A stretch of DNA of 64,000 nt from Paraspadella gotoi (Eukaryota; Animalia; Chaetognatha). The stretch is from the NCBI GenBank assembly GCA_051294375.1, contig CM119270.1, positions 6,115,038 to 6,179,037 on the forward strand, given 5' to 3'. The notes under the pieces were generated by a model, which made no database searches, was not told the origin of the DNA, and worked only from the letters and a program-made list of their open reading frames with translations. Position numbers and translations under genes: made by a program. Each line of letters starts with the position of its first letter. The stretch's first letter is position 1. Of the stretch, positions 2,980-3,212 are shown in pieces.

Positions 2980-3212
2980 TGTGGCAGCAAGACTTAAAGC
3001 TGCCTCACCTCAGCCTCGTCTCAATGGCTGAGCAGGCTAAATCATCTCATTCCATCCGTGCGTCCCGGGTTCAATCCCTGGGTATCCCGGTTCTGGCTTA
3101 AATGTGACGGTGCCGGTATAAACATGCCAGTGACAGGAGGCGGTCACTGAGGGTCCGCAGCCCCTACGCCAGTTGGTGAGATACCCCGCGCCCCGGGTAT
3201 CACAGGCTATCC
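2980..3212 (+). mobile_element. tRNA-derived SINE-like insert carrying a twister ribozyme; presence/absence variant
   Basis: A-box-like tggctgagcagg 3025-3036, B-box ggttcaatccc 3068-3078, and T-arm ccggg-ttcaatc-cctgg. The GC-rich block is missing from the copies of this locus at ~4750, ~14710 (reverse complement) and ~23545 (reverse complement). Confidence 0.75.
3093..3172 (+). ncRNA. Twister self-cleaving ribozyme, circularly permuted (P5-open), with P3 and a minimal P1
   Basis: P5 ctggc 3093-97 / gccag 3168-72; P2 atgt 3102-05 / acat 3122-25; GA 3106-07; T1 cgg 3108-10 / ccg 3155-57; short P1 hairpin 3111-18; UAA 3119-21; T2 gc 3126-27 / gc 3160-61; P3 cagtgac 3128-34 / gtcactg 3143-49; P4 ggg 3151-53 / ccc 3162-64 closing loop UCCGCAGC. 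Confidence 0.85.

Follow-up and report, generated by a model that had tools for sequence, protein, structure and literature searches.

A P5-type twister-class core whose helix P1 is replaced by a palindrome, within a tRNA-boxed dispersed repeat of Paraspadella gotoi

The type-P5 class of twister ribozymes is reportedly due to Roth et al. 2014, and a hammerhead-bearing repeat of Schistosoma, said to be the one called Sm-alpha, to Ferbeyre et al. 1998. The element considered here is a twister-like motif within a short repeat with transfer RNA (tRNA)-type promoter boxes, found in 64,000 nucleotides (nt) of the chaetognath Paraspadella gotoi (GenBank assembly GCA_051294375.1, contig CM119270.1, positions 6,115,038 to 6,179,037, forward strand; this whole stretch is referred to as the window). 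Among the closest described systems, Schistosoma repeats resembling short interspersed elements (SINEs) combine a promoter with a hammerhead (PMC6765202), and in hammerhead retrozymes the ends of the unit are held for ligation (PMC7229834). A 2026 preprint derives animal retrozymes from Penelope-like elements, and the word "twister" has 0 occurrences in its available text (10.64898/2026.07.22.740005). Penelope-like elements carry minimal hammerheads with a palindromic helix III, which are thought to act as dimers (PMC4209133). Naiads prefer (TA)n targets, and the available part of the paper on them reports no twister, only the absence of canonical hammerheads (PMC8557442).

Six helices (P5, P2, P3, P4 and the pseudoknots T1 and T2) were identified at 3093-3172 of the window, in which 25/25 pairs are Watson-Crick; the two pseudoknots account for 5/5 of these (3 bp and 2 bp), with T2 joining 3126-27 to 3160-61. 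An original prediction, made from the letters of the sequence, had read a full set of twister elements in P5 order, and each element it named was recovered on the plus strand at 3093-3172; the pair count, a pairing descriptor and a custom covariance model (both described below) confirm the set. P2 has the four pairs of a twister. P4, predicted as ggg/ccc, is paired as proposed, but it is 4 bp long rather than 3, the pair A3150-U3165 being included, and so matches the 4-bp P4 of crystal structures (PMC5408937). Loops L1 (UAA, GA) and L4 keep every conserved base but A28, where C stands. The proposal of G3106 as the catalytic G is supported by its position in the model alignment, equivalent to G45, and the proposed cut at 3119/3120 by position. 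A stable P1 was not found within one copy. The motif is almost certainly a genuine member of the twister class, and judged from its sequence it probably cuts in some form. Four features had been overlooked in the prediction: C3158, the palindrome with its option of a dimer, the hairpin at 3087-3116, and membership in a high-copy, tRNA-headed mobile repeat. The coordinates of the features are collected in Table 1.

Table 1. Features of the repeat, the twister core and related motifs (window positions; Pol III, RNA polymerase III)
Feature	Position	Strand	Basis or remark
One copy of family 1, a dispersed repeat of ~250 nt	2980..3212	+	Absent from paralogs; depth in sequencing run X1
tRNA-type box A, predicted Pol III internal promoter	3025..3036	+	Only plus-strand A/B pair in the window scan
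tRNA-type box B	3068..3077	+	Box scan; precedes the ribozyme
Competing hairpin	3087..3116	+	Would mask P5a, the T1 strand and the palindrome; mean pair probability 0.42-0.84 (range over six sequence contexts containing 3087-3116; the folding program ignores pseudoknots)
P5, 5′ strand	3093..3097	+	Pairs with 3168-3172; 5/5 Watson-Crick
P2 strand	3102..3105	+	Pairs with 3122-3125; 4/4 Watson-Crick
G3106 (predicted general base), A3107, T1 strand 3108-3110	3106..3110	+	Model alignment position; T1 3/3 Watson-Crick with 3155-57
Loopless palindrome in the place of P1	3111..3118	+	Predicted partner a second copy; self-duplex energy
L1 UAA (U3119-A3120-A3121), predicted cut 3119/3120	3119..3121	+	Twister consensus (PMC5408937, PMC8501958)
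P2 strand 3122-25, T2 GC 3126-27, P3 hairpin 3128-3149	3122..3149	+	Pairing check
P3	3128-34/3143-49	+	7 bp
P4 (4 bp) and L4	3150..3165	+	L4 loop 3154-3161; T1 strand 3155-57, C3158, T2 GC 3160-61
P5, 3′ strand	3168..3172	+	Pairs with 3093-3097
GC-rich 3′ hairpin	3180..3201	+	3180-86 may alternatively pair with 3080-86, lengthening P5; 7/7 pairs either way
Decayed copy of family 2, a second high-copy tRNA-headed family	3291..3549	+	Twister-like layout at ~3409-3474; palindrome 3418-3423; TCTC on both sides
Third twister-like motif, without P3	54124..54166	+	6-nt palindrome 54132-54137; custom model 13.0 bits, E 0.23; relaxed descriptor; weak alone

The pairing descriptor asked for paired P2, P4 and T1 as well as for the conserved bases, and it was composed after the sequence was known. 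It gave a single match on the two strands of the whole window, at 3093-3172, and no match in 384 Mb (184 Mb + 200 Mb) of simulated DNA from first-order Markov models trained on the window and on the element. Rfam returned no match at gathering thresholds in the 64,000 bases. Below threshold, the only match was to twister-P1 (17.6 bits, E 0.94, 3115-3185) in the wrong register, which was rejected, P2 and T1 being unpaired there; no match to Twister-P5 (RF02684, gathering threshold 37.6 bits) was listed at E up to 10. In the Rfam twister-P5 model, P1 is a hairpin of 8 bp and P3 is lacking, and this is why the motif is missed. As the Rfam threshold was not reached, the motif was classed as a twister variant and not as a member of RF02684. 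A custom model was built from 21 of 89 phage P5 twister loci, picked for good pairing and low redundancy, some with a P3. It scored 3102-3165 at 29.9 bits with an E value of 2.4e-5 (rough calibration), and its next-best match in the window reached 13.0 bits. As a control, the Rfam twister-P5 threshold was passed by 18 of 20 scanned phage loci of the CCG type. The check by covariance model that accompanied the original prediction was thus negative with Rfam (0 gathering matches, no P5 match listed) and positive with a model that allows a P3 insert. Folding z-scores of the region (-0.05 and -0.85) indicated a stability no greater than that of shuffles and are uninformative. With pseudoknots left out, the penalty imposed by the competing fold was 4.7-7.0 kcal/mol. 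Between 3 and 8 of 22 phage twisters, according to the length of flank included, bear a penalty at least as large, and on this ground silencing of the ribozyme is neither proven nor excluded.

The core departs from the textbook twister in T1 and at C3158. The T1 combination CCG/CGG, which had been put forward as unusual, is shared by 45 phage loci. C3158 occupies the position of the A (A28) that forms a trans A-A pair in crystal structures; A stands there in 45/45 CCG-type and 34/44 CCC-type phage matches, and C also in L077 (40.8 bits) and L108 (metagenome). In the rice twister, relative activities were 1.00 for A28C, 0.13 for C27G, 0.86 for C27G/G47C and 0.89 for a swap of T2 to AC/GU (PMC5113685 supplement; cells located by column counting, one symmetric cell checked), in a 2-hour end-point assay that masks moderate losses of rate (PMC5113685). 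By analogy with these published data, each departure from the rice ribozyme would be tolerated on its own.

In the place of P1, the eight nt at 3111-3118 form a palindrome with a computed 8-bp self-duplex of -10.9 kcal/mol. The minimal intramolecular P1 drawn in the prediction, three pairs around a 2-nt loop, is impossible; a 2-bp P1 hairpin is computed at +4.4 kcal/mol, and in a further calculation it takes the energy from -22.4 to -19.5. Because the palindrome pairs with itself whereas an intramolecular P1 hairpin is unfavourable, the replacement of the first helix is likely to mean that the ribozyme cuts best when two copies pair, and the energies tip the balance toward dimer gating. Phage matches in which 3/4 or more of P2 is paired hold 15-26 nt in the place of P1, without exception (74 of 74). 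Equally strong self-pairing was reached by 37 of 1680 permutations of 3111-3118. In run X1, two family variants at or above 5% fall within the ribozyme, at 3111 (12.8% of depth) and 3118 (6.1%), and both strike the outer pair of the palindrome, leaving a 6-bp core (-9.9 to -10.9 kcal/mol); this outer pair is needed by a monomer P1. None of the listed X1 variants affects the 25 core pairs or the catalytic bases; the variants are unphased, and a young family would preserve most positions regardless.

Palindromes stand at the P1 place in all three twister-like motifs of the window (3111-3118, 3418-3423 and 54132-54137). A scan of metagenomes for short linkers gave 32 loci, 6 of which were parsed by the model as ordinary long-P1 twisters and set aside. 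Among the remaining 26, some of them near duplicates, full P2 and P4 were present in two (L108 and L118), both palindromic, and two of the other 24 were palindromic (p 0.018). Short twister-like motifs with a palindromic P1 were seen on unrelated, eukaryotic-looking metagenome contigs at L108:297-343, L118:297-344 and L102:297-339.

The ribozyme lies within a copy of a dispersed repeat, family 1. This copy (2980-3212) is shorter than the family, by ~10-11 nt internally, near 3007, and by ~11-13 nt at the 3′ end. It is missing from the window paralogs at 4208-5691 and reverse 13703-15290, which are 80-89% alike and indel-rich and may be uncorrected reads of a single locus. In run X1, one contig with nearly exact flanks has 23 other letters between 2979 and 3213, which constitutes an empty site; the insertion replaced 23 nt of target and is not fixed, being absent in one sequenced sample (X1). 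Neither junction of the filled allele was spanned by any listed contig, and the insertion rests on the assembly. The summed X1 depth was 4.2-7.7e5 on the element versus 153 on the flank (2,700-5,050x), with 1576 contigs on the stretch; the ratio is not a copy number, and thousands of copies are the likely order. Depth was 4.2-7.4e5 upstream of the cut site and 5.6-7.7e5 downstream, and copies retain ~140 nt upstream of the predicted cut. Four positions of the whole element vary family-wide at or above 5% in X1. Among the 20 sequencing runs listed, the stretch was present in 12, and 4 runs were aligned. None of the holders listed is an RNA run, which carries no information about expression. In X10, guessed to be RNA, element depth was 8-38x that of the flank contig, which was not counted as evidence. 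In runs X9 and X11, made from other organisms, 1 and 4 contigs were present at a depth of 4-10 and were put down to likely carry-over rather than horizontal transfer. A family-specific 24-nt pattern gave 0 metagenome loci, and a 16-nt pattern gave 4 phage loci, all dismissed as chance.

The 5′ end of the family is sharp at ~2980, and 60 loose ends run past 3214 with ~11 common letters before they diverge, without a common poly(A) or simple-repeat tail. These common terminal letters can pair with the element's opening nine, except for two mismatches that would be G-U pairs in RNA. The family starts with TG and appears to end in TA, with imperfect 9-nt inverted repeats at its ends, and the flanks are TA-centred. 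Box A and box B were both found, as in a tRNA-derived SINE, with patterns consistent with PMC10886601; box A sits 45 nt inside the element, not at the 5′ end as a tRNA-derived SINE head would have it, and ARAGORN found no intact tRNA. No run of three T occurs in the element; the same holds for 2369 of 20000 shuffles (weak).

A second family shares this plan. Family 2 reached an X1 depth of 800-2,100x that of the flank over the part covered, and its box B lies 30 nt before the GA, compared with 29 nt in family 1. Its layout comprises a 6-nt palindrome, UAA, T2 AC/GU, a P3 with 6/7 pairs and a P4 with 5/5 pairs. The copy at 3409-3474 has one T1 mismatch, at a position that holds the pairing base in the X1 loose-end consensus and in the copy at 415-450, and its P2 is broken. 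The family appears to start with TA, this copy ends in CA, and pairing between the copy's two ends is computed at -12.0 kcal/mol. On the minus strand at 346-452, inside an intron of the EF1A gene, a partial, diverged family 2 copy was observed; TGG comes after its end, in the manner of a primer-binding site, but no second repeat follows. The third motif, at 54124-54166, has T1 UGG/CCA, T2 AC/GU, a perfect P4 and a weak 3-nt P2, and its layout resembles that of Naiad_Mley. No related copy of it was found in the window, and by-eye inspection of the open reading frames (ORFs) around 54124 found no recognisable retroelement protein. The same twister layout thus recurs with different T1, T2 and P4 letters at 3409-3474 and 54124-54166; its retention in a second family with other paired letters suggests long-lasting selection. 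Relaxed descriptors for family 2 and the third motif expect 0.035 and 0.044 matches per window, the palindrome not being counted.

A link to Naiads was sought in published consensi. By eye, the Naiad_Mley consensus carries a twister in P5 order, ~250-300 nt from the 3′ end, with P2, T1, T2 and P4 paired and two palindromes at the place of P1 (PMC8557442 supplement, File S5); inspection by eye of 10 further Naiad 3′ ends in that supplement revealed none. Several nematode Naiad 3′ ends carry hammerhead-like cores by eye (PMC8557442 supplement).

The observed pairing, palindrome, boxes, high copy number, sharp ends and empty site can be joined in one reading: a full P5-order twister core with a palindrome for P1, within a tRNA-boxed repeat of ~250 nt, which would cut at U3119/A3120 in a dimer-dependent manner and travel as a non-autonomous passenger of Penelope-like (Naiad-type) retroelements. 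As a whole, this reading is given slightly less than an even chance. In its steps, Pol III would probably transcribe from the boxes through the ribozyme. Two copies would then, on balance, exchange halves, so that one copy contributes its 5′ half (P5a, P2′, G3106 and the T1 strand) to pairing with its partner's 3′ half, and an 8-bp P1 is built from both palindromes in the swapped dimer. G3106 and A3120 would catalyse the cut as in other twisters, cutting in some form being probable. A lone transcript, with no P1 and with the competing hairpin 3087-3116, would be off, and a dimer would complete P1 and cut both copies; a single copy or a unit-length circle, having no partner, would largely be spared. 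Finally, and tentatively, a transcript of two units would be cut at both sites to give a unit from 3120 to 3119, whose ends, held by P5, P2 and T1, could be ligated into a circle and copied by a Naiad-type reverse transcriptase. Two features of the repeat are accommodated by this proposal. A SINE head followed by an efficient ribozyme should be lost by truncation (PMC5786205), yet the head is kept; dimer gating is therefore offered as a resolution, copies keeping the head upstream of the cut because those without a partner are largely spared. A single copy transcribed from its own boxes would not yield the leader upstream of box A, and a two-unit template is therefore suggested. The partner of such a tRNA-headed, non-autonomous repeat is most likely Penelope-like, at about an even chance. 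The broader notion of a new group of small non-coding elements, "Pol III-driven twister retrozymes", is rather doubtful; in it, a twister taken from Naiad terminal repeats and gated by dimerisation would act on multimers alone, freeing unit circles and sparing the tRNA head, in at least two old sister families of hundreds to thousands of copies.

Several results weigh against this reading. The hairpin 3087-3116 dominates the computed ensemble. The palindrome by itself is a 2% event, and for the linker of family 2 self-pairing is as strong in 7 of 20 permutations. The alignment between the two families is weak, its score being attained by 49 of 1000 shuffles, and the relaxed descriptors were tuned to motifs already seen. 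The rice data hold A28C and the T1 swap separately, never combined (PMC5113685). In X1, where contigs of a high-copy repeat are short, none of the 15 joints viewed, out of 17, was head-to-tail; one contig returns from 3155 to 2975. No Naiad ORF was found, six motifs derived from the window or the family had 0 matches in the consensi published for Naiads from other species, and further motif searches of the Helenus and Naiad supplements gave nothing or matched unrelated coding sequence alone (a match broken across lines could escape these searches). A twister was visible by eye in 1 of the 11 Naiad 3′ ends inspected. Sharp ends on both sides are not simply predicted by a rolling template. P1 is dispensable for cutting in a mini-twister (PMC5408937), P1 mutants are tolerated in the rice twister (PMC5113685) and P1-mismatched T-variants still cut (PMC8501958); by analogy with this tolerance of P1 loss, the monomer may cut well.

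The last point leads to an explanation that is unlikely on present evidence, namely that the monomer cuts with a P1 of 0-2 bp, that the palindrome is incidental and that head-bearing copies stem from transcripts that escaped through the competing hairpin. The tolerance just described speaks for it, an 8-nt linker could bridge the gap, and the hairpin supplies an off state. Its difficulty lies in the recurrence of palindromes at the P1 place (3/3 window motifs, 2/2 well-paired short-linker metagenome motifs, and Naiad_Mley) and in the head itself, which an efficient ribozyme would have truncated (PMC5786205), yet X1 depth upstream of the cut is close to the range seen downstream (4.2-7.4e5 versus 5.6-7.7e5). 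The repeat could instead be the solo long terminal repeat (LTR) of a Helenus-like miniature LTR retrotransposon, with a Pol III start in the 5′ LTR, twisters of both LTRs that pair and cut, and Gypsy-type insertion, as in plant LTR retrozymes; this is judged quite unlikely. Boxes at least 45 nt inside the element, too deep for a plain SINE head, agree with it, as do the sharp ends, the TG start, the imperfect 9-nt inverted repeats, flanks like a TA-centred 4-bp target, and the CA end and TCTC on both sides of the family 2 copy; Helenus LTRs bear tRNA boxes, occur solo and, in animals, generate duplications of 4 bp (PMC10886601). Against it, neither a second LTR nor a primer-binding site or polypurine tract was seen; family 1 apparently ends in TA and family 2 apparently starts with TA, the copy at 2980-3212 has a 23-nt target deletion without a duplication, five nucleotide motifs had 0 matches in Helenus consensi (line breaks can hide matches), and a palindrome-P1 twister is otherwise seen by eye in a Penelope-like element (Naiad_Mley). 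Internal boxes, sharp ends and TA-centred flanks fit the Penelope-type and the solo-LTR explanation alike.

A silenced relic, picked up from another retroelement and now inside an ordinary tRNA-derived SINE or miniature DNA transposon, would owe its conservation solely to the youth of the family. In a young family everything is still conserved, and only four element positions vary at or above 5%; the competing hairpin hides the active site, Rfam gives no match, minimal Penelope hammerheads cut poorly in vitro (PMC4209133), and 8 of 9 frog retrozyme dimers failed to cut (10.64898/2026.07.22.740005). This is held improbable nevertheless, no core pair being broken and the second family keeping the layout and the same box B distance (29 versus 30 nt) with other paired letters. 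A chance match is extremely improbable: the curated Rfam thresholds are missed and the stability z is -0.05, but 0 descriptor matches in 384 Mb and E 2.4e-5 with an independent model refute it at the level of sequence.

The ribozyme lies ~800 nt beyond the stop codon of EF1A (2302-2304), in a genome that bears introns and is rich in microsatellites. The element stands ~110 nt behind an AATAAA on the same strand (2866-2980), possibly the EF1A poly(A) signal; a cut at the element could aid termination of EF1A, the insertion not being fixed, however. Divergent EF1A copies were seen at ~230-2304, reverse 14719-16658 and 25205-26366, some of them indel-rich and perhaps uncorrected long-read fill; for one EF1A exon, the best database identity was 89%. 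One stretch occurs in four copies of 80-93% identity between N gaps (2421-4154, 4208-5691, reverse 13703-15290 and reverse 22097-23069), which could be either a true duplication or redundant assembly. A large inverted repeat at ~37700-48000, centred near a gap at ~42900, has arms 83-100% complementary over several kb and may be a fold-back assembly artefact. At ~49400-51300, a tandem array consists of units of ~110-125 nt built on GA microsatellites.

What is new here is a non-autonomous, Pol III-headed, high-copy carrier of a twister. Full-text searches of the open-licence literature found no report of a twister inside a tRNA-headed repeat, nor of dimer gating through a palindromic helix, which hammerheads are known to use, in a twister. 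If the proposal is true, it explains why the promoter of a SINE-like element survives the presence of a ribozyme inside it, one regulatory trick arose in two unrelated ribozyme classes (hammerhead and twister), and the motif is a candidate for what some "ribozyme-less" Naiads use; palindrome-P1 twisters are then a class that Rfam misses.

Compared with the type-P5 twister (RF02684, clan CL00120; PMC5408937), the core shares the strand order, GA, UAA, P2, T2 GC/GC, a 4-bp P4, the L4 pattern and T1; it differs from the model in an 8-nt loopless palindrome for P1, in the presence of P3 and a closing P5, in C for A28 and in a score below the Rfam threshold. The P1-type T-variant twisters of Perere-3 (RTE clade; PMC8501958) likewise place a weak-P1 twister in an animal retroelement, but at its extreme 5′ end, with copies that begin at the cut, whereas here the ribozyme is internal and copies extend ~140 nt further upstream.

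As mobile units, Schistosoma repeats (PMC6765202) and animal non-LTR retrozymes (PMC7229834; 10.64898/2026.07.22.740005) are alike in being short and non-coding (170-400 nt), with a Pol III-type promoter followed by a ribozyme and with multimers favouring cleavage; the present repeat has a twister for the hammerhead and dispersed, sharp-ended copies. Helenus terminal-repeat retrotransposons in miniature (PMC10886601) and plant LTR retrozymes (PMC7761336) resemble it in tRNA boxes within a short terminal-repeat-like unit and in a ribozyme repeat that frees unit-length RNA; the available Helenus text reports no ribozyme, and plant retrozymes use type III hammerheads. Naiads share TA-rich targets, like the TA-centred flanks here, and Naiad_Mley has palindromes at the P1 place as well (PMC8557442), whereas the present repeat is non-coding and tRNA-headed, with no common sequence found. 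In the Penelope hammerheads with a palindromic helix III (PMC4209133), one helix is likewise cut down to a palindrome and two copies complete each other; the ribozyme here belongs to another class, and its copy has neither a reverse transcriptase nor a GIY-YIG ORF beside it.
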